NCBI GenBank assembly: GCA_963717365.1
Contig: OY970327.1
Coordinates: forward strand, 203,599 to 267,598
Origin: Candidatus Saccharimonadia bacterium
GTDB lineage: Bacteria > Patescibacteriota > Saccharimonadia > Saccharimonadales > 2-12-FULL-41-12
Length of the DNA: 64,000 nucleotides
Direction of reading: 5' to 3'
The position numbers and the translations under genes are program-made. The notes beneath the pieces were generated by a model. That model was given only the letters and a program-made list of their open reading frames with translations, ran no database searches and had not been told where the DNA came from. Shown in pieces: positions 4,326 to 56,385 of the stretch; the stretch's first letter is position 1, and the number at the start of each line of letters is the position of its first letter.

Positions 4326-5747
4326 CTAGCCGTGCAAAGATTGAAGTTCGCGGTGCGAAATAGGCTGCAACTTAAAAGCTGCCGATTTATTCGTTAGATA
4401 ACTGCGGATAATTTTGTACGTATCAATATCAAACACAGACTGCCAGGGTTTGAAATAGGTTTCGCATCCCTCTTCACTATGAATTTCCCCAATAACATTC
4501 CAGTTGTCGATGACAAGATTCTTCGGCTGATTATTCTGCACAATGTGTGATAGTACGACCGGGTTACGAAACGGCCACTCGTCAATTTTTTGCCGCCCAA
4601 AAGCGATCTCAAGACGTTTGTTATAAAGTGCTACAGGCTCAAGTCCAACACAAGCACCACGGCACTTGCGCAACTGGAACTTAAAACAAGCAGAGGTTGC
4701 TTTCTCTAGGCCGAGTAACTTTGGGCATAAATCAAAGGTCTTTTGAATTGATTCTAACGAGCGCTTAGCCTTCATTTTTGAAGCATACACTCCATAAAGA
4801 GAACTATTCGGGCCAATGTCTGAGCTATCAATAAAATCAATAGCAATCGTTTCATAGCCGACACTATTGCGCGTAGTTTTTAAGACGTACATCTTCTTAT
4901 GCCTGCGTAATTGGCGATTATAGATCGGCAACTGTTCTTTGACCATTTGTGATTCAAGGAGCAGTGCTTCTAGCTCGTTAGCTGTTTCGATGAACGATAT
5001 CTTATGGGTATTGAGCGACAACTTCATTTCTTTATCAATGACTGTGTCCTGAGAAAAATGAGACATAACACGTTTGCGTAAGGCAATACTCTTACCTATG
5101 TAAATTGGATTACCGCTTGAGTCTAGAAAAGTATACACACCTGGAGTATTTGGAATTGTATCAAATGCACCGCTTGTAACATGGGGTGGCGCGCTGCGAT
5201 GCTTAAACTGCTTACTAATCGCAAGATTAAATATGTCAGCACCATGTTCAAGGTGGGCGATTTTTAAAAATCTACGAACTGCTTCGGCGTCATCGTAGGC
5301 TCGGTGACGCGCATTAGTTTCAATGCCATAACGTTTGATTATTGCTTCTAGACCGTGACCTTTAACACTTGGGTATAACGCACGTGACAGTCGAACACTG
5401 CACAACATTCGTGGATTGTAGCGGATGTTACAGATTTCTAGTTGCCGTTTAATGAAAGAGTAGTCAAACCGAACATGATGTGCAATAAAAATAGCTCCCG
5501 ACAAAACTGAATGAAGCTGTTCGGCAATACCTTCAAAGAATGGTGCATCGGCAACATCGCCAGATGTAATACCGGTTAGGGCAGTAATATGGTAGGGAAT
5601 TGGTGATCCGGGATTTACCAACGTTTTAAACGTATCAACTATCTCATCATTCTCAACCCGGATAGCGGCGACTTCAATAATACGACTAGTCCGATAGCTC
5701 CCTCCAGTCGTTTCAATATCCACATAAACTACGGGTTCATTAAACAT
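4326..5747 (-). CDS. DEDDh 3'-5' exonuclease (DnaQ-like) fused to a GIY-YIG / UvrC-N-terminal (Cho-like) nuclease module
   Basis: ExoI VYVDIETTG and HNARFD-like HHVRFD with the H..AYDDA motif in the N-terminal half. This is followed by GVYTFLDSSGNPIYIGKS (GIY-YIG) and a UvrC-like Cys cluster (CPKLLG...CFKFQLRKCRGACVG). Confidence 0.8.
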   Translation of the reverse strand: MFNEPVVYVDIETTGGSYRTSRIIEVAAIRVENDEIVDTFKTLVNPGSPIPYHITALTGITSGDVADAPFFEGIAEQLHSVLSGAIFIAHHVRFDYSFIKRQLEICNIRYNPRMLCSVRLSRALYPSVKGHGLEAIIKRYGIETNARHRAYDDAEAVRRFLKIAHLEHGADIFNLAISKQFKHRSAPPHVTSGAFDTIPNTPGVYTFLDSSGNPIYIGKSIALRKRVMSHFSQDTVIDKEMKLSLNTHKISFIETANELEALLLESQMVKEQLPIYNRQLRRHKKMYVLKTTRNSVGYETIAIDFIDSSDIGPNSSLYGVYASKMKAKRSLESIQKTFDLCPKLLGLEKATSACFKFQLRKCRGACVGLEPVALYNKRLEIAFGRQKIDEWPFRNPVVLSHIVQNNQPKNLVIDNWNVIGEIHSEEGCETYFKPWQSVFDIDTYKIIRSYLTNKSAAFKLQPISHRELQSLHG

Positions 5748-35921: not shown

Positions 35922-37013
35922 ATGGAGCGTCAACCGAAATCGGAAATTATTTTATCGCCGCACGTTCGGTTTGCCGAAGATTGGCAAGAAACGTTAAAAG
36001 ATAACGAACTAGCCGCACGGTTTAATGATCTTATTGGTTTTACCCAAGAATCAGTAAGTGGGTCAGATTATCCATGGATACATGACCGCAAAGAGGTTGG
36101 TATGCGCTGGCAGCATTTGGTTAACCTGCTGGGCGACGCGGCTCGGTCACACAGCCACCCTTTGTTTCGGCGTGGCCAAGGCTGGTGCGACGAAGAAAGA
36201 ACGGCACAAGTTCTAGAGCCAATCGATTATCGTAGTTTTGACGCCAGCTTTATAGAAAATGCGCTTATTTTAACTCATTCACTCGCTGTGCAGCAAAAAC
36301 AGTCAACTAGCCCTGGTTTATCCGTTAGCTTGAACATACTTAATAATATGGATGACATGAAAGACCCTGAGTTGGTAGATTTCTTTACCAAGTCATTTGA
36401 TTTGCGAGATTTGGCTGAACCGACCGATACGCTTATTGACGAAATGACGTTAGAAGATTTTAAAAATTTAACTAAAGAAAAACGAGAAGGACTTATCGAC
36501 CAGCTATTTGAAATGGCTTTCAAGACAGAAGAATATGGTAATGGATACGGCTGGTCACGTCCCCCTCAAAAACAAAAATATCTGGATGAACGTAGCAAAC
36601 TGATAGAGTATTCTGATCTAGTAGAGTATGGAACGGCCGAAACATCTGAGATTGAGCAGATTCTGGATGAAAGAAAAACTGCCGAAATTGCACGTCTGCG
36701 CCAAGAACGTCCAGATTTTGGTAAGAAACCTGACGACTTTGAGTCCTTACCAGACAACTTAAAAACATGTGTTACATCGATGTTTGAGTATTTTGATCAT
36801 ATGCGTGAACGATACAATGTGATTGGCATCGACACGCACAGCATGAACAGAATGGGTTTTACGAATGGTGATTTAGAGAGTCTTAAGCATGCCGGTATTC
36901 TAATAAATGAAGAACAGTCTCTGATGCCCGATGGCTACATGTGGAGTTACTTGCTATCCCAGCCATACTACGAATGCTGGGTATCGCGACATTACCCCGT
37001 AGAGTCTGAATAG
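35922..37013 (+). CDS. Hypothetical acidic cytoplasmic protein (363 aa)
   Basis: Long ORF with no TM segment or signal peptide. I recognise no family. Confidence 0.5.
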   Translation: MERQPKSEIILSPHVRFAEDWQETLKDNELAARFNDLIGFTQESVSGSDYPWIHDRKEVGMRWQHLVNLLGDAARSHSHPLFRRGQGWCDEERTAQVLEPIDYRSFDASFIENALILTHSLAVQQKQSTSPGLSVSLNILNNMDDMKDPELVDFFTKSFDLRDLAEPTDTLIDEMTLEDFKNLTKEKREGLIDQLFEMAFKTEEYGNGYGWSRPPQKQKYLDERSKLIEYSDLVEYGTAETSEIEQILDERKTAEIARLRQERPDFGKKPDDFESLPDNLKTCVTSMFEYFDHMRERYNVIGIDTHSMNRMGFTNGDLESLKHAGILINEEQSLMPDGYMWSYLLSQPYYECWVSRHYPVESE

Positions 37014-37063
37014 TATTTACATACGGATTACTATGAGTTATAGTAGTTTTCACTTAACAATTT

Positions 37064-37219
37064 AAAAAATATACAGAAGCAGCGAGAGATCTAGCTCATT
37101 GACCTGCTAGCAACCTACCATTTGGTAAGGTGCTCCATCTAGTTCCTGGTTAAACCTGGAAGAGATATTTTTCTTACGAAGAATCCTTTTCTTGGAAAGT
37201 CCAGGGAAAGGATATTTTT
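37064..37219 (+). promoter_or_regulatory. SAM-I-class riboswitch-like leader (aptamer about 37064-37172 plus terminator/SD-sequestering hairpin 37183-37219)
   Basis: Aptamer elements:
- P1: AAAAATAT (37065-72) pairs with ATATTTTT (37165-72).
- P2a: GCAG pairs with CTGC, around a GA-rich internal loop and a CTAG-containing loop.
- P3: AGCAACC (37109-15) pairs with GGTGCT (37129-34) with a bulged A, as in the SAM-I core GGCAACC...GGUGCC.
- J3/4: contains CTAG, a possible pseudoknot partner for the P2 loop.
- P4: hairpin at 37143-37161.
Expression platform: hairpin ATCCTTTTC/GAAAGGAT followed by ATTTTT and then the ATG.
Context: a second copy lies upstream of metK. Confidence 0.7.
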
Positions 37220-38176
37220 ATGTCAAAACAATTCGAGGTGCTCAGCGCCGTCCACGGTATCGCGCCGCGCAGCGATGAGCTGCTGCGCTTGGGTGGTGAT
37301 GTTGATCGGGGTCGTGCTTCAGCGCTTGAATATGATGAGCTCCTACAACATGAGTCAGAAGAGTGGCTGAATGTTCAGCAAGTAGAAGGCATTGATCGCG
37401 TCTCTGCTGGAAAGCTGGATTGGCAGGATCACCTGCGCCCGATTGTGCAGGCAACCGACGGTTTTAAGCCAGGCATTGATAATGCTCAAGTGACGCGGTG
37501 GTATGAAACAAATACGTTTTATCGGCGACCAACCATAACAAGTTATCTGAATGTAGATTCTAGTAAGCTTCCAGGTGAATACGGCTCGAGTATTGATTTA
37601 TTGGCGCCATACTCATTTGCATCGTTGTGTGACAATGCATCTACAGGCAAGACTTTGGAACTAGTAACCGATTTATATGATCAAATTATCTACCATTATG
37701 TTAACAAGGGAGTCGGTCGTATTGTTTTAAAAGAATACACGCATCAGCGGTTAGAAGATAGAATTCTGAGTAACGAAAGTCTAAAGGAGGTCACTATCCT
37801 TGCCAACAGATATCAGAGCACAGAATTTGCTTATCTTACTTCAGAGACATCAGTTCCAAAGGACGCACCGCTAAACCTAGGTCTTGAAATCACACCGCAT
37901 ACAGCTAAAGCGCTTAGTTTGGTTCCGTATCTCAATAATGGTCTTGAAGGACGAAATGTATGGACATCGGTAGTCCATGCTGATTCTACGTTGCCAGACG
38001 TGTCTATGGCATCTTTCTGGAATAAGTATATTTTGCGTCAGCTAGGAATCGCTAAGCTGATTCTAACTAATACCGTTGATTTTCAGCATATACCCTTGGA
38101 CTATGCCAAAGAGAAAATTAAATGGTTAGCCGAGGAGACGCGTCAAACCAAAAGCCAACTAGGAGATTTGTCATGA
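37220..38176 (+). CDS. MetE N-terminal-domain-like protein (non-catalytic barrel of cobalamin-independent methionine synthase) encoded as a separate ORF
   Basis: 318 aa. TRWYETNTFYRRP parallels the MetE N-domain KWFDTNYHY motif, and LILTNTVDFQHIPLDYAKE parallels ...SCSLLHSPIDL.... No His-x-Cys or Cys zinc ligands are present. The stop overlaps the next start (ATGA). Confidence 0.65.
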   Translation: MSKQFEVLSAVHGIAPRSDELLRLGGDVDRGRASALEYDELLQHESEEWLNVQQVEGIDRVSAGKLDWQDHLRPIVQATDGFKPGIDNAQVTRWYETNTFYRRPTITSYLNVDSSKLPGEYGSSIDLLAPYSFASLCDNASTGKTLELVTDLYDQIIYHYVNKGVGRIVLKEYTHQRLEDRILSNESLKEVTILANRYQSTEFAYLTSETSVPKDAPLNLGLEITPHTAKALSLVPYLNNGLEGRNVWTSVVHADSTLPDVSMASFWNKYILRQLGIAKLILTNTVDFQHIPLDYAKEKIKWLAEETRQTKSQLGDLS

Positions 38177-39330
38177 GTGAATTATTAAGAACACAAGAAG
38201 TTGGTAGTTTGGCTAAACAAAGTTGGCGTGTGCAGCCGTTGCAGGGATTGGGGGTCAGGGATGAGCATATAGACGAAGCGGTTAACTGGGCTGAACGTTT
38301 AGGCGAGACACCAGAAGAAGCAAACGAGGTATTAAGAACGGCGCAAGAGGAGGGAACGCAGTTAAGCTCAGAAAGTGCTGACTCAATCAAGAATCTAGCG
38401 GCTCGTTATGCTATTCGGCTGCAAGAAAAAGCTGGCTTAGATATACTGTATGACGGTGAACAAGACCGGCCAGAGATGTACCAAAGCGCGGTCGAAGATA
38501 CCGTTGGCTTTGAACCAAGAGGCCGCCTGCGCGCATTCGATAATCGGTCTTTCTTAAAATCAGCCGTTGTCGGCCAGCCCGGCATTACTGCGCCGTGGTA
38601 CACCCAGGAGTTTCAGCGTATTCGGCAACTTACCGATAAAACGATAAAAGTTCCTGTCACCGGTGCATATACCGTGGCTGATTGGTCCTTCGATGAGTAT
38701 TACCAGAAATCAATAACCCTTGGCGGTAAACAGTTGGCTCCAAAGGAAGCAAAACGGCAGTTTGTGCTTGATGTTGCAGAGCAGGTTGTTCGTCCAAATA
38801 TAAAATCGTTACTAAAACAAGGCGCCGAGTGGATTCAAATTGACGAGCCAGCGGCTACCACCAAACCACATGAAGTTGCTTTATTTGTTGAATCATTCAA
38901 CCGTTCAATACAGGGATTAGCAGGCCGGTTCAGCGTGCATATTTGTTTTTCGGATTACAGTCTCTTGTTCCCTCACGTTCAACAGTTAGAAAATTGTGCT
39001 CAATTCTCGCTGGAATTTGCTAACAGTGACGCAAAATCTTTGGGCAGAGACAAGGCACATCGACCGGCGTATGAAATCCTGGGTAAGTTTGCTACTGATC
39101 GGCCGGATATTGGAATCGGACTTGGTGTAACTAGTATTCATGAGAATCAAATAGAATCGCCAGAGTTAGTACGGGATCGTATTCTTCGGGCAGTTGATAT
39201 CATCGGCGATGCCGCAAAAGTATACCCGTCTCCGGATTGTGGCTTGCGCACCAGAAGCTGGGATGTTGCTTATAAGAAGTTTTCAGTAACAGTAGAAGGC
39301 GCGTGTTTAGCACGGAATGAATTCGAATAA
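38173..39330 (+). CDS. metE: Cobalamin-independent methionine synthase catalytic domain (core-MetE, Meth_synt_2); start set at MSELLRTQEVGS
   Basis: The zinc ligand set is conserved: VHICFSDY (His-x-Cys), FSLEFANSD (Glu) and SPDCGLRTR (Cys). WIQIDEPA and LDILYDGEQDRPEM are also present. AGGAG lies 8 nt upstream of ATG 38173, and there is a 4-nt overlap with the upstream ORF. Confidence 0.85.
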   Translation: MSELLRTQEVGSLAKQSWRVQPLQGLGVRDEHIDEAVNWAERLGETPEEANEVLRTAQEEGTQLSSESADSIKNLAARYAIRLQEKAGLDILYDGEQDRPEMYQSAVEDTVGFEPRGRLRAFDNRSFLKSAVVGQPGITAPWYTQEFQRIRQLTDKTIKVPVTGAYTVADWSFDEYYQKSITLGGKQLAPKEAKRQFVLDVAEQVVRPNIKSLLKQGAEWIQIDEPAATTKPHEVALFVESFNRSIQGLAGRFSVHICFSDYSLLFPHVQQLENCAQFSLEFANSDAKSLGRDKAHRPAYEILGKFATDRPDIGIGLGVTSIHENQIESPELVRDRILRAVDIIGDAAKVYPSPDCGLRTRSWDVAYKKFSVTVEGACLARNEFE

Positions 39331-39535: not shown

Positions 39536-39686
39536 TATGATATACCTCCTATTTCAACAATATACTCTGATTTTATAAGATATCAATCATGATTATAGAG
39601 AATAGAATTACAGGTAAAAAGTTACTATCACACTAATTAGGTTATTGTGTTATGATTTATCAATAACCGTAAGCAGGAGCATTGGG

Positions 39687-41501
39687 GTGCAGTTAATAAA
39701 CCAGTTACAAACCAGGACAAAACAGCTAGTAATTTTTTCTATAGTAATTACCATGATAGCAAGTGGAGTATTTATTCCTCGTGCGTTTGGGGCAGGCGGC
39801 GGACCGCCAAGCTGCGAAAACGGTATCCCCGGGGTATCATTTAGCTTACAACCAGCTACAAAAGGCGTTGGCACGCTGGAAGTCTCTTTAGATGGTCAAT
39901 ACAGCGACCCTTGTGACGATCCAATTGTTGATTACGCTTGGAACTTTGGCGATGGAAGTACTGCTCACGGTGTTTCGGTTACGCATATATATGGCGTAGG
40001 TACGTTCCGTCCCACGTTAACCATCACTGATGCTAGTGGCGCAACTAATACAGCAACATATCGCAACGATATAGTCGTTAAGGCTACTAACCAGAACCCG
40101 ATCTTTAATGACAGTAGTTACGAAACATTCCATCAAAATTATCTTGACATTGACTTGAAGCCACTGGCATCAGACCCTGACGGCGACAACATTAATGATA
40201 GCTACTACTTAGTTGATGCATCATCTAACCACGTTAAAACAGACAAAGGTTACATATCTCTTAATTCTTACGCCGGTACACTCCGCTACTCTGCAATTAA
40301 CTATAATCCTACCGGCCAAGATATAATAAATATTGGTATCAAAGATGGATTTGGTGGCACCGATACAGCGCAGATTACCATTAACCTACACTCCTATGTA
40401 ACAGGAGTAGACGACACAGCTACTACCTATTCCGGTACACCAGTGACTATCAATGTAGCTGCTAACGACTACTCGTATTACGGTGAAGCCGTAACTGTGG
40501 CTAGGTACGCATACGAACAGACGAATGGTACAGCCACCGTTAACGCTGATGGTACTATCACTTTTGTTCCAGCCGCCGGCTTTGTTGGCACGGGCAGTTT
40601 TAGATATGTAATTTATAGCTCAAATCCTGCTATGAATGCGGTGAATCATGCCTATGCCTATATAGATGTTCGTCCGGTTCCTAACTACGCGCCAGTTGCA
40701 GTAAATGACAATTTAAATGTGGGCGAAGATTCCAGCGGTACCATTAACGTCCTGGCTAACGACAGTGATCAAGATGGTGATGCACTCTCATCAAACATAA
40801 CTACTGGGCCAGTTAACGGTACTGCTAGTATGTCGCCAGCTGGTTTACTGAGCTATACCCCGAATGCTAACTTCTATGGAACGGACACCGTGCAATACCA
40901 AGTTACTGACAGCAAAGGTGCTGCCAGTACTGCTACCGTAATTATTGGGGTAAGTTCAATCAATGATGTGCCAGCAAGCAGTAATGACACAGCCAGTATT
41001 GCCGAGGACAACAACGTAAGCATAGCTGTACTTAGCAATGATTCAGACGTTGAAGATGGAACCAATTTAACGGTTCAAATAGTTAGCAATCCTGCTCACG
41101 GCACGGCTACTGTGAACAGTGATAAAACCATAACTTACGCACCAAAAGCTAATTTCAATGGCAATGATAGCTTTACCTATAAAGTAACCGACAAAAATGG
41201 TGCAACCAGCACTTCCACGGTAAATATAACCGTTACCTCTGTTAATGACGGACCTACGGCAGCTTTCACCGGTACGCTAAAGCGAAACGGCACAGCTACA
41301 TTAAATGCCAGCACTTCTCACGACATCGACGGTCAAATCGCCAGCTATACATGGAATTTTGGCGATGGCCAAACCGCAACCACTACTAGCCCAACCACTG
41401 ATCACCGTTACACCGGTAAAAATTCAAGCTATCAAGTAACCTTGACTGTCACTGACAATCAAGGTGCTACCGCCACAATTGTGCGGACTATAGCATACTA
41501 A
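39687..41501 (+). CDS. Secreted adhesin-like protein with terminal PKD-like domains and internal cadherin-like/VCBS-type repeats (start set at the GTG after AGGAG)
   Basis: - Signal/anchor: LVIFSIVITMIASGVFIPRAFG.
- PKD: WNFGDG motifs occur near both ends (YAWNFGDGSTAHG and YTWNFGDGQTATT).
- Repeats: APVAVNDNLNVGEDSSGTINVLANDSDQDGDAL, INDVPASSNDTASIAEDNNVSIAVLSNDSDVEDG and VNDGPTA.
- Start: AGGAG lies 7 nt upstream of GTG 39687. Confidence 0.8.
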   Translation: MQLINQLQTRTKQLVIFSIVITMIASGVFIPRAFGAGGGPPSCENGIPGVSFSLQPATKGVGTLEVSLDGQYSDPCDDPIVDYAWNFGDGSTAHGVSVTHIYGVGTFRPTLTITDASGATNTATYRNDIVVKATNQNPIFNDSSYETFHQNYLDIDLKPLASDPDGDNINDSYYLVDASSNHVKTDKGYISLNSYAGTLRYSAINYNPTGQDIINIGIKDGFGGTDTAQITINLHSYVTGVDDTATTYSGTPVTINVAANDYSYYGEAVTVARYAYEQTNGTATVNADGTITFVPAAGFVGTGSFRYVIYSSNPAMNAVNHAYAYIDVRPVPNYAPVAVNDNLNVGEDSSGTINVLANDSDQDGDALSSNITTGPVNGTASMSPAGLLSYTPNANFYGTDTVQYQVTDSKGAASTATVIIGVSSINDVPASSNDTASIAEDNNVSIAVLSNDSDVEDGTNLTVQIVSNPAHGTATVNSDKTITYAPKANFNGNDSFTYKVTDKNGATSTSTVNITVTSVNDGPTAAFTGTLKRNGTATLNASTSHDIDGQIASYTWNFGDGQTATTTSPTTDHRYTGKNSSYQVTLTVTDNQGATATIVRTIAY

Positions 41502-47007: not shown

Positions 47008-47031
47008 AAAAATAGCCCCTTTCTGGGGGCT
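47007..47031 (-). terminator. Rho-independent terminator candidate for the 47087 gene
   Basis: On the minus strand, the AGCCCC/GGGGCT stem (forward 47014-47019 and 47026-47031) is followed by ATTTTTAT, immediately before the next start codon. Confidence 0.45.
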
Positions 47032-51645: not shown

Positions 51646-51709
51646 TGGTTCTAACGTCTAACTTGGTCTGGCCAAGTTCAACAGATGTAGTTCATACTGG
51701 CTGGGGATG
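51623..51709. repeat. tRNA-proximal copy of the direct repeat (tRNA-Gln 3' terminal 12 nt plus 75 nt downstream)
   Basis: See 50735-50820. This copy contains the intact terminator hairpin and the genuine tRNA 3' end. Confidence 0.6.
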
Positions 51710-51771
51710 AGGGATTCGAACCCCCGATGCATGGACCAGAACCATGTGCCTTACCACTTGGCGAATCCCCA
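51698..51771 (-). tRNA. tRNA-Gln (anticodon CUG), CCA encoded
   Basis: The reverse complement reads UGGGGAU-UC-GCCAAGUGGUAAGGC-A-CAUGG-UUCUGGU-CCAUG-CAUC-GGGGG-UUCGAAU-CCCUC-AUCCCCA-G-CCA. This gives a full cloverleaf, the U1-A72 pair typical of bacterial tRNA-Gln, and a near-collinear match to E. coli tRNA-Gln2. Confidence 0.92.
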
Positions 51772-55000: not shown

Positions 55001-55080
55001 GTAATGGCGCTCGCTCTAAGCACCTGGCAATTTGAAATGCCTATGCTATACTCGTAGACAGCCTTTGAATTTAACAACTC

Positions 55081-55272
55081 AAATATAAAGAGTGCAGCGA
55101 GAGATCTAGCTTTTTGACCTGCCAGCAACCAATTTGTCTATGCGTGAAGGCCGCGGAAACAAGCAACGGTGCTCCGACTAGTCCCGGGAATTCCTGGGAA
55201 AGATATTGCCATTTACAAAAGTGACTAATGCGTATCCTTCTCTTGAATTATATTTGGGAGAAGGATATTTTT
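55081..55272 (+). promoter_or_regulatory. SAM-I-class riboswitch-like leader upstream of metK (second copy)
   Basis: - Core: the same core as the 37064 leader (GCAGCGAGAGATCTAGCT..TTGACCTGC.AGCAACC ... GGTGCTCC..CTAGT).
- P3: longer than in the first copy.
- P4: TCCCGGG/CCTGGGA, with a compensatory change relative to copy 1.
- P1: AATAT/ATATT.
- Expression platform: hairpin TATCCTTCTC (55233-42) / GAGAAGGATA (55258-67), then TTTTT, then ATG 55273. Confidence 0.7.
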
Positions 55273-56385
55273 ATGCCAATCATTAAACTTTTTACCAGTG
55301 AATCTGTTTGCGCTGGTCATCCGGATAAAATCTGCGATGCTATCAGTGACGCGATTGTGGACGCCGCACTGGCTCAAGATCCGCATAGTCGCACTGGTAT
55401 TGAAACCGTCGCCGGTGCTAACCAGATCAGCCTGTATGGTGAGATAAAAACGACTGCCAAAATAAACTTCGAGGAAATTGTTCGTGGTACCGTTAAGCGG
55501 CTTGGCTACACGGTACCGGCGTGGGGCTTTTCGCAGGAATCTATTTTTAGCAATGATGTTCACCAGCAATCGCCAGAAATTGCGCTGGGCGTGGATCAAG
55601 ACGGTGCCGGCGACCAAGGCATGATGTTTGGTTATGCCTGCACTGAAACAGAAGAACTGCTGCCGTTGCCCATCGCTTTAGCGCACGCTTTAGCAAAACG
55701 AATCGATGATTCACGAATTAGCGGCAAACTAGCCTGGCTCCGCCCGGACGGCAAAGCTCAAGTGACTATCCGTTATGAAGATGACGTACCGGTAGCAGTT
55801 GAAAAACTGGTGGCCGCGGTGGCTCACGATGAAGCGACCGATGCGGCTACAGTTAGAAAACAGGTAATCGAGACTATTTTTGTTCCGATTCTAAAAACAT
55901 ACAAGTTACCGCTGCCAGCTGATGAAGACATTGTGGTGAATGGTACCGGCTTGTGGCATATTCCGGGACCTGAATCTGACGCCGGCTTAACGGGTCGTAA
56001 GATCGTAGTTGATACGTATGGCGGTTATGCTCGGGTTGGTGGCGGTGCTTTTTCAGGTAAAGATCCCAGTAAAGTCGACCGTTCGGGCGCCTACGCCGCC
56101 CGCTATATTGCCAAAAACATTGTGGCCAATAAGCTAGCCACAAAGTGTGAGGTCGGTCTGGCCTACGTTATCGGCCAGCCGCTGCCCTTAATGCAGACAA
56201 TTGAAACTTTTGGCACGGCAAACGTCAGTGACGAAGAACTACACGCCTTTAAGGACAAGCTGATAGATACGTCGGTGAAGGGAATTATTGACCGGCTTGA
56301 TCTGGCTCGGCCAATTTACAGCCAGACTTCTGCCTACGGACACTTTGGCAAAGCCGAGCTACCATGGGAGCAGATAGTCGTCTAG
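55273..56385 (+). CDS. metK: S-adenosylmethionine synthetase (start at MPIIKLFTSES, not the upstream ATG at 55228)
   Basis: FTSESVCAGHPDKICD, GAGDQGMMFGYA, GGGAFSGKDPSKVDRS and AYAARYIAKN are present. The 15 upstream codons of the longer ORF lie inside the leader hairpin. Confidence 0.95.
   Translation: MPIIKLFTSESVCAGHPDKICDAISDAIVDAALAQDPHSRTGIETVAGANQISLYGEIKTTAKINFEEIVRGTVKRLGYTVPAWGFSQESIFSNDVHQQSPEIALGVDQDGAGDQGMMFGYACTETEELLPLPIALAHALAKRIDDSRISGKLAWLRPDGKAQVTIRYEDDVPVAVEKLVAAVAHDEATDAATVRKQVIETIFVPILKTYKLPLPADEDIVVNGTGLWHIPGPESDAGLTGRKIVVDTYGGYARVGGGAFSGKDPSKVDRSGAYAARYIAKNIVANKLATKCEVGLAYVIGQPLPLMQTIETFGTANVSDEELHAFKDKLIDTSVKGIIDRLDLARPIYSQTSAYGHFGKAELPWEQIVV

Follow-up and report, generated by a model that had tools for sequence, protein, structure and literature searches.

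A SAM-I riboswitch aptamer with a predicted dual expression platform in the leader of a split metE operon of Candidatus Saccharibacteria

The split metE operon and metK

The window analyzed here is a single stretch of 64,000 nucleotides (64 kb) of Candidatus Saccharibacteria DNA. On its forward strand, the leader region 37064-37219 is flanked by a 363-aa ORF without known function, which ends at 37013, and by an ORF that starts at 37220 and overlaps a further one. Together with a SAM synthetase gene elsewhere in the window, these two ORFs are the genes considered in this work:

37220-38176, forward strand: ORF1, 318 aa, similar to the N-terminal domain of MetE (profile of 22 homologues compared with PDB)
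38173-39330, forward strand: ORF2, 385 aa, catalytic (C-terminal) domain of MetE (PF01717, Meth_synt_2, E 9.5e-27)
55273-56385, forward strand: metK, SAM synthetase, 370 aa (TIGR01034, 452 bits with a cutoff of 309, and three S-AdoMet_synt Pfam domains)

A Pfam search with ORF1 yielded no match, and NCBIfam yielded weak matches to MetE-type families. The profile of 22 ORF1 homologues retrieved only MetE chains from PDB at E < 0.01 (best about 1e-5), covering the N-terminal half of MetE, including residues 49-344 of 4ztx; weaker matches to Erlin-1 followed at E 0.09-0.16. Two of the homologues carry the NCBI name 'MetE-like', and all those with a source name belong to Candidatus Saccharibacteria or Saccharimonadales, as do the seven genome loci that the ORF1 profile retrieved. 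ORF2 aligns with residues 453-750 of Thermotoga maritima MetE (1T7L), with the HxC and PDCGL motifs retained and SLEFA opposite SIEAS, and scores 232 bits with NCBIfam PRK04326, under the 406-bit equivalog cutoff. Its ATG at 38173 overlaps the ORF1 stop codon as ATGA, and the same start is called in another assembly. The original prediction referred to split metE genes; this is a fair description of ORF1 and ORF2 as far as predicted activity goes, with NCBIfam scores under the equivalog cutoffs. The pair is predicted to form a two-gene, translationally coupled operon for cobalamin-independent methionine synthase, and the two genes are denoted metE-N and metE-C below. The true start of metK is the ATG at 55273, not the first ATG of that ORF.

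Class and conservation of the aptamer

Between the preceding ORF and ORF1, the following elements of the leader were delineated, the four helices by alignment to the Rfam model RF00162:

37016-37044, forward strand: promoter-like site TTTACA-17-TATAGT, with 10 of 12 consensus matches, of a kind not enriched over shuffles here
37066-37171, forward strand: SAM-I aptamer
37066-37073 with 37164-37171, forward strand: P1
37078-37108, forward strand: P2, whose GA/UGA internal loop is K-turn-like
37091-37094, forward strand: CUAG in the P2 loop, candidate 5' partner of a pseudoknot, found in each of 59 distinct related aptamers
37109-37134, forward strand: P3
37138-37163, forward strand: P4
37139-37142, forward strand: CUAG in J3/4, candidate 3' partner of the pseudoknot, invariant in eight metE leaders retrieved by protein similarity and in two metK leaders

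A transcript initiated from the promoter-like site would start about 14-20 nt 5' of the aptamer. As a separate observation, many other genes in this genome look leaderless.

At gathering thresholds, Rfam 15 produced two matches in the whole window, one tRNA and RF00162 (SAM-I). The latter scores 58.5 bits on the forward strand (gathering score 44.4, E 6e-11 in the 64-kb window), and its alignment at 37066-37171 spans model positions 1-108 of 108. The original prediction had assigned the entire interval 37064-37219 to the element. The element is indeed found there, with the aptamer proper confined to 37066-37171 and the remainder constituting the expression platform. The four-way junction folded by hand in that prediction is recovered as an alignment across P1-P4; the SAM-I core at the base of P3 is present as AGCAACC (37109-37115) and GGTGCT (37129-37134); and the GA-rich internal loop of P2 and the two CTAG tetrads occur where they had been placed. 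The region 37050-37240 folds with a z score of -3.3, and none of 200 dinucleotide shuffles folds as well.

The covariance-model scan of the SAM clan also bears on the subtype, which the original prediction had left open among SAM-I, SAM-IV and SAM-I/IV-like forms. The SAM-IV and SAM-I/IV variant models were not retained at 37066-37171 when the clan members competed. The subtype is assigned as SAM-I because RF00162 is the best and the only retained match of the clan, covers all four helices and passes the curated threshold. SAM-IV and the SAM-I/IV variant are not known to have the arrangement of P4 and P2 K-turn that characterizes SAM-I. At some related loci, lower-scoring overlapping matches of the clan were suppressed, which would fit another SAM-clan class; against this, all 108 positions of RF00162 are aligned here, P4 and the internal loop of P2 among them, P4 co-varies among relatives (see below), and the complementarity between the P2 loop and J3/4 that is typical of SAM-I is present. 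Assignment to SAM-IV or to the SAM-I/IV variant is thus very improbable. To judge by its alignment, the element at 37066-37171 has the testable defining features of SAM-I and is a SAM-I (S-box) riboswitch aptamer, that is, a predicted sensor of SAM.

A second copy lies in the metK leader, where the original prediction had noticed the same core:

55080-55209, forward strand: second SAM-I aptamer (RF00162, 33.4 bits; E 1.2e-3 across the window, 1.1e-5 locally)
55232-55272, forward strand: terminator/sequestrator hairpin of 17 pairs with a trailing U5, -17.2 kcal/mol, with the Shine-Dalgarno sequence (SD) GAGAAGGA in its 3' arm

In this aptamer, P3 carries an insertion of 22 nt and two of the outer P1 pairs are mismatched; the insertion keeps its score below the gathering score of 44.4. 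Threshold-based annotation would therefore under-count the regulon in Saccharibacteria, the metK copy being the one item here that automated annotation would miss. The layout downstream of this aptamer is the same as in the metE leader, with the stem at 55232-55268 followed by U5 and by the AUG at 55273. When the whole window was scanned permissively, with E values of up to 10, the sole other additions were CRISPR-DR27 (E 6.8) and an mgtC leader (E 9), both at chance level and rejected.

The aptamer is conserved at orthologous loci. Each of the seven Saccharibacteria genomes that were retrieved by protein similarity has a match to the SAM model directly upstream of its ORF1 orthologue, at 40.5-57.2 bits, four of the matches reaching at least the gathering score, even though the proteins are only 35-41% identical. 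Absence of the element from orthologous met genes had been named as evidence that would speak against a riboswitch; the opposite was found, and the covariance-model match, whose lack had been named as well, is significant. To extend the comparison, metagenomes were scanned with a pattern derived from P3 and J3/4, which yielded 120 loci, and a clade model (R1) trained on ten Saccharibacteria leaders recognized 66 aptamers, 63 of them distinct. The aptamer at 37066-37171 scores 95.4 bits with R1, of whose training set it is itself a part; relatives upstream of MetK from outside the training set score 80-103 bits. The related aptamers are found at loci encoding MetK, Cys/Met PLP enzymes (Cys_Met_Meta_PP), ThiS and proteins with a PAPS-reductase domain (PAPS_reduct).

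In the alignment of the 63 distinct aptamers, paired cells make up 84.6%, a share that drops to 37-49% once the 3' partners are displaced by 1-3 columns, and compensatory changes affecting both sides occur in 22 of the 31 base pairs. None of 500 shuffles reached the observed values of pairing and covariation. P2 is 100% paired and all five of its outer pairs co-vary, as does P4. The alignment used here (A3) was fitted to the model, and the search pattern preset the P3 base and the J3/4 CUAG, so that apparent conservation is inflated. A chance fold of an AT-rich intergenic region devoid of riboswitch function, in favor of which nothing was found, can be given almost no weight, considering the E value of the Rfam match, the presence of the aptamer at seven of seven orthologous loci with such divergent proteins, and the compensated pairs; chance resemblance is refuted by the RF00162 score, the orthologue leaders and the covariation taken together.

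Several positions do not vary at all. The nucleotides T5 A6 T7 A8, A10 G11 A12, G45 C46 A47 A48 C49 and G65 T66 G67 C68 are the same in each of 10 leaders, and the P1 pairs A6-U and U7-A (6/248 and 7/247) are invariant in 58 of 58. From the literature on the 2GIS structure, we take the ligand-pocket positions to be the A-U and U-A pairs of P1, the G of J1/2, and the unpaired A of P3 with the flanking G-C and A-U. In the P2 internal loop, CGA (37083-37085) and UUGAC (37099-37103) align with high posterior to the consensus columns gGA/UGAA and are nearly invariant, a correspondence at the level of sequence. Since CUAG is self-complementary, the P2 loop and J3/4 could form four Watson-Crick pairs with each other. 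The two tetrads are complementary in 59 of 59 aptamers, with zero variation in the clade and with the J3/4 tetrad preset by the search pattern, and they differ on both sides from the Rfam consensus, cuGG/CCug. Because both partners are invariant within the clade, the support for the candidate pseudoknot comes down to complementarity, which is consistent with SAM-I.

The fused hairpin and the proposed antiterminator

The expression platform occupies the remainder of the metE leader and overlaps the 3' strands of the aptamer:

37155-37195, forward strand: antiterminator/anti-sequestrator helix, in which 37155-37173 (P4 3' strand, J4/1 and P1 3' strand) pairs with 37178-37195 (terminator 5' arm)
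37183-37213, forward strand: terminator/SD-sequestering hairpin of 14 pairs with a 3-nt loop, -17.6 kcal/mol, present in the minimum free energy (MFE) structure of the whole leader
37206-37212, forward strand: SD, GAAAGGA, wholly within the hairpin 3' arm, with a 7-nt spacer to the AUG as read from the sequence
37215-37219, forward strand: U5 run between the hairpin and the start codon

The hairpin 3' arm GAAAGGAT (37206-37213) is followed by ATTTTT (37214-37219) and then by the ATG at 37220, so the combined terminator and SD-masking hairpin of the original prediction is in place; it is the longest terminator-like stem of its 20-kb segment. The U-run might simply be the usual ribosome-binding site spacer of this genome. 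This was rejected: the 15-mer AAGGATATTTTTATG occurs in the 64 kb only at 37208-37222 and in the metK leader, that is, at the two riboswitch genes, and among 50 long ORFs an SD followed by T5 was found only at metE-N, in a crude scan that did not cover the true start of metK.

The fused module, (A)UCCUUUC, loop, GAAAGGA(U), U-run and start codon, was found in 45 distinct related leaders, in which the upper stem and the loop vary freely. In these leaders, which were chosen for T>=4, the U-run spans 4-9 nt with a mode of 6, U makes up 93% of the spacer, and the start codon is 4-10 nt past the stem; the spacers of 13 other SD-led genes of the window, picked by hand, are 39% T. Practically all fused leaders have their entire SD paired inside the hairpin. 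The genes behind the fused module encode MetE-N, MetK, Cys/Met PLP enzymes and, in one case, a protein with a PAPS-reductase domain; at one locus (L007), a ThiS-family ORF is located between the fused module and MetE-N. Other arrangements occur as well. Six more distant relatives (L063, L071, L016, L081, L029 and L087) carry a stand-alone hairpin with a U-run far 5' of the start codon, and two leaders (L034 and L020) retain the SD hairpin without the U-run. Thus, the lineage appears to use pure terminators, pure sequestrators and, most commonly, the fused form, as judged by predicted roles.

These variants help to weigh the two simpler ways in which the platform could work. If the switch acted on translation alone, the hairpin would sequester the SD and the U-run would be a non-terminating spacer. 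The lower stem of the hairpin is A/U-rich and the free energies of the related hairpins, about -6 to -20 kcal/mol, are weak for an intrinsic terminator, which suits this reading, as do the two leaders without the U-run, where sequestration alone evidently can suffice. Translational SAM-I switches outside Firmicutes are, moreover, known (PMC2258182; PMC7270179). Counts of terminator-like sites in the window do not clearly exceed those in shuffles (22 vs 18.7, 27 vs 17.0 and 20 vs 17.2), and therefore termination at the leader is something that we infer. Nevertheless, the U-richness of the spacers in the 45 leaders selected for it, as compared to other genes, the lack of an SD with T5 at any other long ORF of the window, and the six relatives with stand-alone terminators, which indicate that the lineage pairs this aptamer with terminators, make a purely translational switch a rather unlikely explanation, if one to be reckoned with.

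Conversely, the switch might act through termination alone, the SD being part of the stem merely owing to the compactness of the leader, and read-through RNA being translated normally. The strongly conserved U-run and the classic S-box architecture of terminator, antiterminator and anti-antiterminator agree with this proposal. However, the complete pairing of the SD in essentially every fused leader, the retention of the SD hairpin in the relatives that lack the U-run, and the presence of the hairpin in the MFE structure of the full-length leader, where it would persist on read-through RNA, all point the other way, and we consider termination alone quite unlikely. A fused hairpin acting at both levels, transcription and translation, is the reading that we prefer.

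Such a hairpin would have to compete with an alternative structure. The original prediction noted that the 3' arm of the hairpin mimics the 3' side of the aptamer, an antiterminator arrangement; indeed, GGAAGAGATATTTTT (37158-37172) and GGAAAGGATATTTTT (37205-37219) are near-repeats, identical at 13 of 15 positions, and both folding of the nascent transcript and co-variation across loci support the alternative pairing. For the transcript ending at 37199, the MFE structure (-33.5 kcal/mol) keeps P2 and P3, and the antiterminator replaces P4 and P1; an alternative fold with P4 intact has almost the same energy (-33.3 kcal/mol). In these folding models, such a near-balance would be what a ligand-tipped switch needs. 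As an isolated helix, the antiterminator amounts to -12.7 to -14.2 kcal/mol. Across the 45 leaders, the duplex between the aptamer 3' segment and the terminator 5' arm averages -13.0 kcal/mol when both strands come from the same locus and -10.4 kcal/mol when the partner comes from other loci, and none of 5000 permutations gave a value as low. Examples of visible partners are CCAGAAAG/CUUUCUGG in the related leader L056 and CCUGGAAGAG/CUUUUCUUGG in the window. Because matched duplexes are stronger than unmatched ones across loci, the alternative pairing appears to be under selection. In the metK leader, the duplex calculation yields -13.3 kcal/mol for the antiterminator, and thermodynamic folding of the nascent metK leader produced a convoluted structure from which a clean antiterminator was not obtained.

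Proposed mechanism and comparison with known systems

Taken together, these observations make it probable that the metE leader is a SAM-I aptamer coupled to a dual OFF switch, with a hairpin that both terminates transcription and sequesters the SD of the metE-N/metE-C operon. When SAM is bound, P1 and P4 would be locked, leaving 37178-37196 free to pair with 37200-37213; the resulting hairpin and U5 would end transcription around the start codon, and any read-through transcripts would still have a buried ribosome-binding site. When SAM is low, the P4 and P1 3' strands (37155-37173) would take the 5' arm of the hairpin and form the antiterminator, RNA polymerase would read through, the SD would be exposed, and the genes would be on. 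The metK gene would be under the control of the same module (55080-55272), and therefore SAM would feed back on the conversion of homocysteine back to methionine as well as on its own synthesis. In this scheme, we infer SAM binding, actual termination at the U-run and the weighting between transcription and translation.

More tentatively, SAM-I in Saccharibacteria might be a nearly fixed, ultra-compact dual module that guards genes of the methionine/SAM cycle, in which the SD doubles as the terminator 3' arm and as a near-copy of the J4/1-P1 strand, and a single 5' arm, AUCCUUUC, chooses among three partners; this generalization is perhaps somewhat less likely to hold than to fail. The same 5' arm presumably resembles the 3' tail of 16S rRNA.

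A literature search for natural riboswitches of Saccharibacteria or Patescibacteria found no specific paper. We attribute this to inattention rather than to novelty because the element shows up in a standard Rfam scan. The merging of terminator with SD and start codon across the clade offers a clean natural system in which to weigh each level of a 'dual' platform, and the native SAM-responsive leader could become a regulatory part in Saccharibacteria. Inducible systems are lacking for Saccharibacteria (PMC11665869). Should the leader indeed work on transcription and translation alike, genetic work in Patescibacteria would gain a ready-made native switch that responds to a ligand, a need that this source states.

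The leaders of metE, metK and yitJ are among the targets of the S-box regulon of Bacillus subtilis. The element described here shares with these SAM-I (RF00162) riboswitches the four-way junction of P1-P4, the P2 internal loop and the complementarity between the P2 loop and J3/4; the conserved AGA of J1/2 and the GCAACC...GGUGC core; the OFF logic, predicted in this case, in which terminator and antiterminator compete through the P1 3' strand; and, as in Bacillus, metE and metK as target genes. Unlike the classical S-box, it resides in a CPR host, Candidatus Saccharibacteria; its P1 consists almost entirely of A-U pairs; its predicted terminator forms one unit with the SD and the start codon rather than being located tens of nucleotides upstream; and its antiterminator also takes the P4 3' strand. 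The candidate pseudoknot tetrads are CUAG/CUAG, in contrast to cuGG/CCug in the Rfam SAM-I consensus. With SAM-IV (RF00634) and the SAM-I/IV variant (RF01725), it has in common the clan (CL00012) and the core sequence of the ligand pocket, whereas the full SAM-I model is matched here with the best score of the clan.

Among SAM-I riboswitches outside Firmicutes, SAM-I_Xcc of Xanthomonas campestris is reported to be mainly translational and also to sense uncharged initiator tRNA (PMC7270179). The Saccharibacteria element resembles SAM-I_Xcc, as described there, in that a SAM-I aptamer with a translational component is associated with a methionine-synthesis operon, and differs from that description in having a canonical U-run and in showing no sign of a second input.

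The closest precedent for the platform is the dual expression platform, in which the ribosome-binding site forms part of a regulated terminator hairpin, on its 3' side, and the start codon lies within 10 nt of the hairpin, with the predicted effect of both attenuating transcription and blocking translation of read-through RNA (Barrick & Breaker 2007, PMC2258182). The metE leader has this layout, with the SD in the 3' side of the hairpin at 37183-37213, the U5, and the AUG 6 nt away. It departs from the dual platforms of Barrick & Breaker 2007 in two respects: the fused arrangement is a near-rule for this clade (some 45 of the roughly 60 leaders examined, upstream of several different genes), and the arm that contains the SD is a near-copy of the J4/1-P1 strand of the aptamer. 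Both the riboswitch class and the dual platform are thus already known from that work (PMC2258182), and the differences from the classical S-box, namely the CPR host, CUAG/CUAG, the A/U-rich P1, the antiterminator that uses P4 and the near-universal fusion, are differences in degree only. The current understanding of riboswitches is unchanged, and the logic of the Bacillus S-box, with SAM repressing metE and metK, appears to be intact in a reduced CPR genome.

The metK riboswitch and gene order in related genomes

A second SAM-I riboswitch was identified in the window, in front of metK:

Window 55080-55272: SAM-I riboswitch and expression platform, before metK

Because of a 22-nt insertion in P3 and weak outer P1 pairs, this copy scores only 33.4 bits, below the Rfam gathering score of 44.4, and would escape threshold-based annotation. 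For its expression platform, it uses the fused hairpin-SD-U5-AUG module that is also present at the metE riboswitch.

In the window, 17 kb separate the metE unit from the metK unit, whereas in L006 and L007, two of the seven Saccharibacteria genome loci retrieved through similarity to the ORF1 protein, the two units are adjacent. In L006, the second aptamer (5068-5235) is located downstream of metE-C, and the same arrangement is found in L007:

L007 2436-6307: riboswitch module and metE/metK unit

Here, the riboswitch module is followed by an 8-codon short ORF, a ThiS-family gene (2699-2992; PF02597, E 2e-10), metE-N and metE-C, with a second SAM aptamer (5039-5149) and metK directly after metE-C. 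The position of a tRNA gene varies as well:

Window 51701-51771, minus strand: tRNA, 58.4 bits

Five of the seven related genomes (L001, L002, L004, L006 and L007) carry an opposite-strand tRNA upstream of the metE riboswitch, at a distance of 80-2700 nt, whereas the tRNA in the window is 14 kb away from it, so that the local synteny differs in the window. Directly 3' of the metE operon, the window encodes a 618-aa protein (39645-41501) with Big_9, cadherin-like and PKD repeats, which is probably a surface or adhesin protein and is unrelated to the riboswitch.

Gene starts, gene junctions and a candidate terminator

ORF1 and ORF2, the two halves of MetE, are joined by an ATGA overlap (window 38173-38176), which suggests that their translation is coupled; translation of ORF2 probably does not begin at 38122, the start of the longest ORF. 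Among the 50 window ORFs of at least 150 aa, with the first ATG crudely taken as the start codon, 21 are preceded by a -10-like hexamer (TAnWMT) whose end is 3-16 nt 5' of that ATG, compared to 3.8 +/- 1.8 at random positions, and only 14 have an SD-like motif. Judging from these motifs, numerous transcripts in this Saccharibacteria genome may have a short leader or none, unlike those of the two riboswitch-led genes.

Elsewhere in the window, a GC-rich palindromic hairpin, AGCCCCTTTCTGGGGGCT (47014-47031), has flanking T-runs on both strands. It resembles an intrinsic terminator that works in both directions, and few other terminators in the window are as convincing.

Other genes behind the same aptamer

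In five metagenome loci (L022, L073, L080, L018 and L027), further sulfur and methionine genes are preceded by an aptamer of the same subtype with the fused platform. These genes encode Cys/Met PLP-dependent enzymes (PF01053) of two kinds, one matching the profile with E 1e-104 and the other divergent (E 2e-17), and a protein containing a PAPS-reductase domain (PF01507), suggesting a small S-box regulon in the lineages of these loci.
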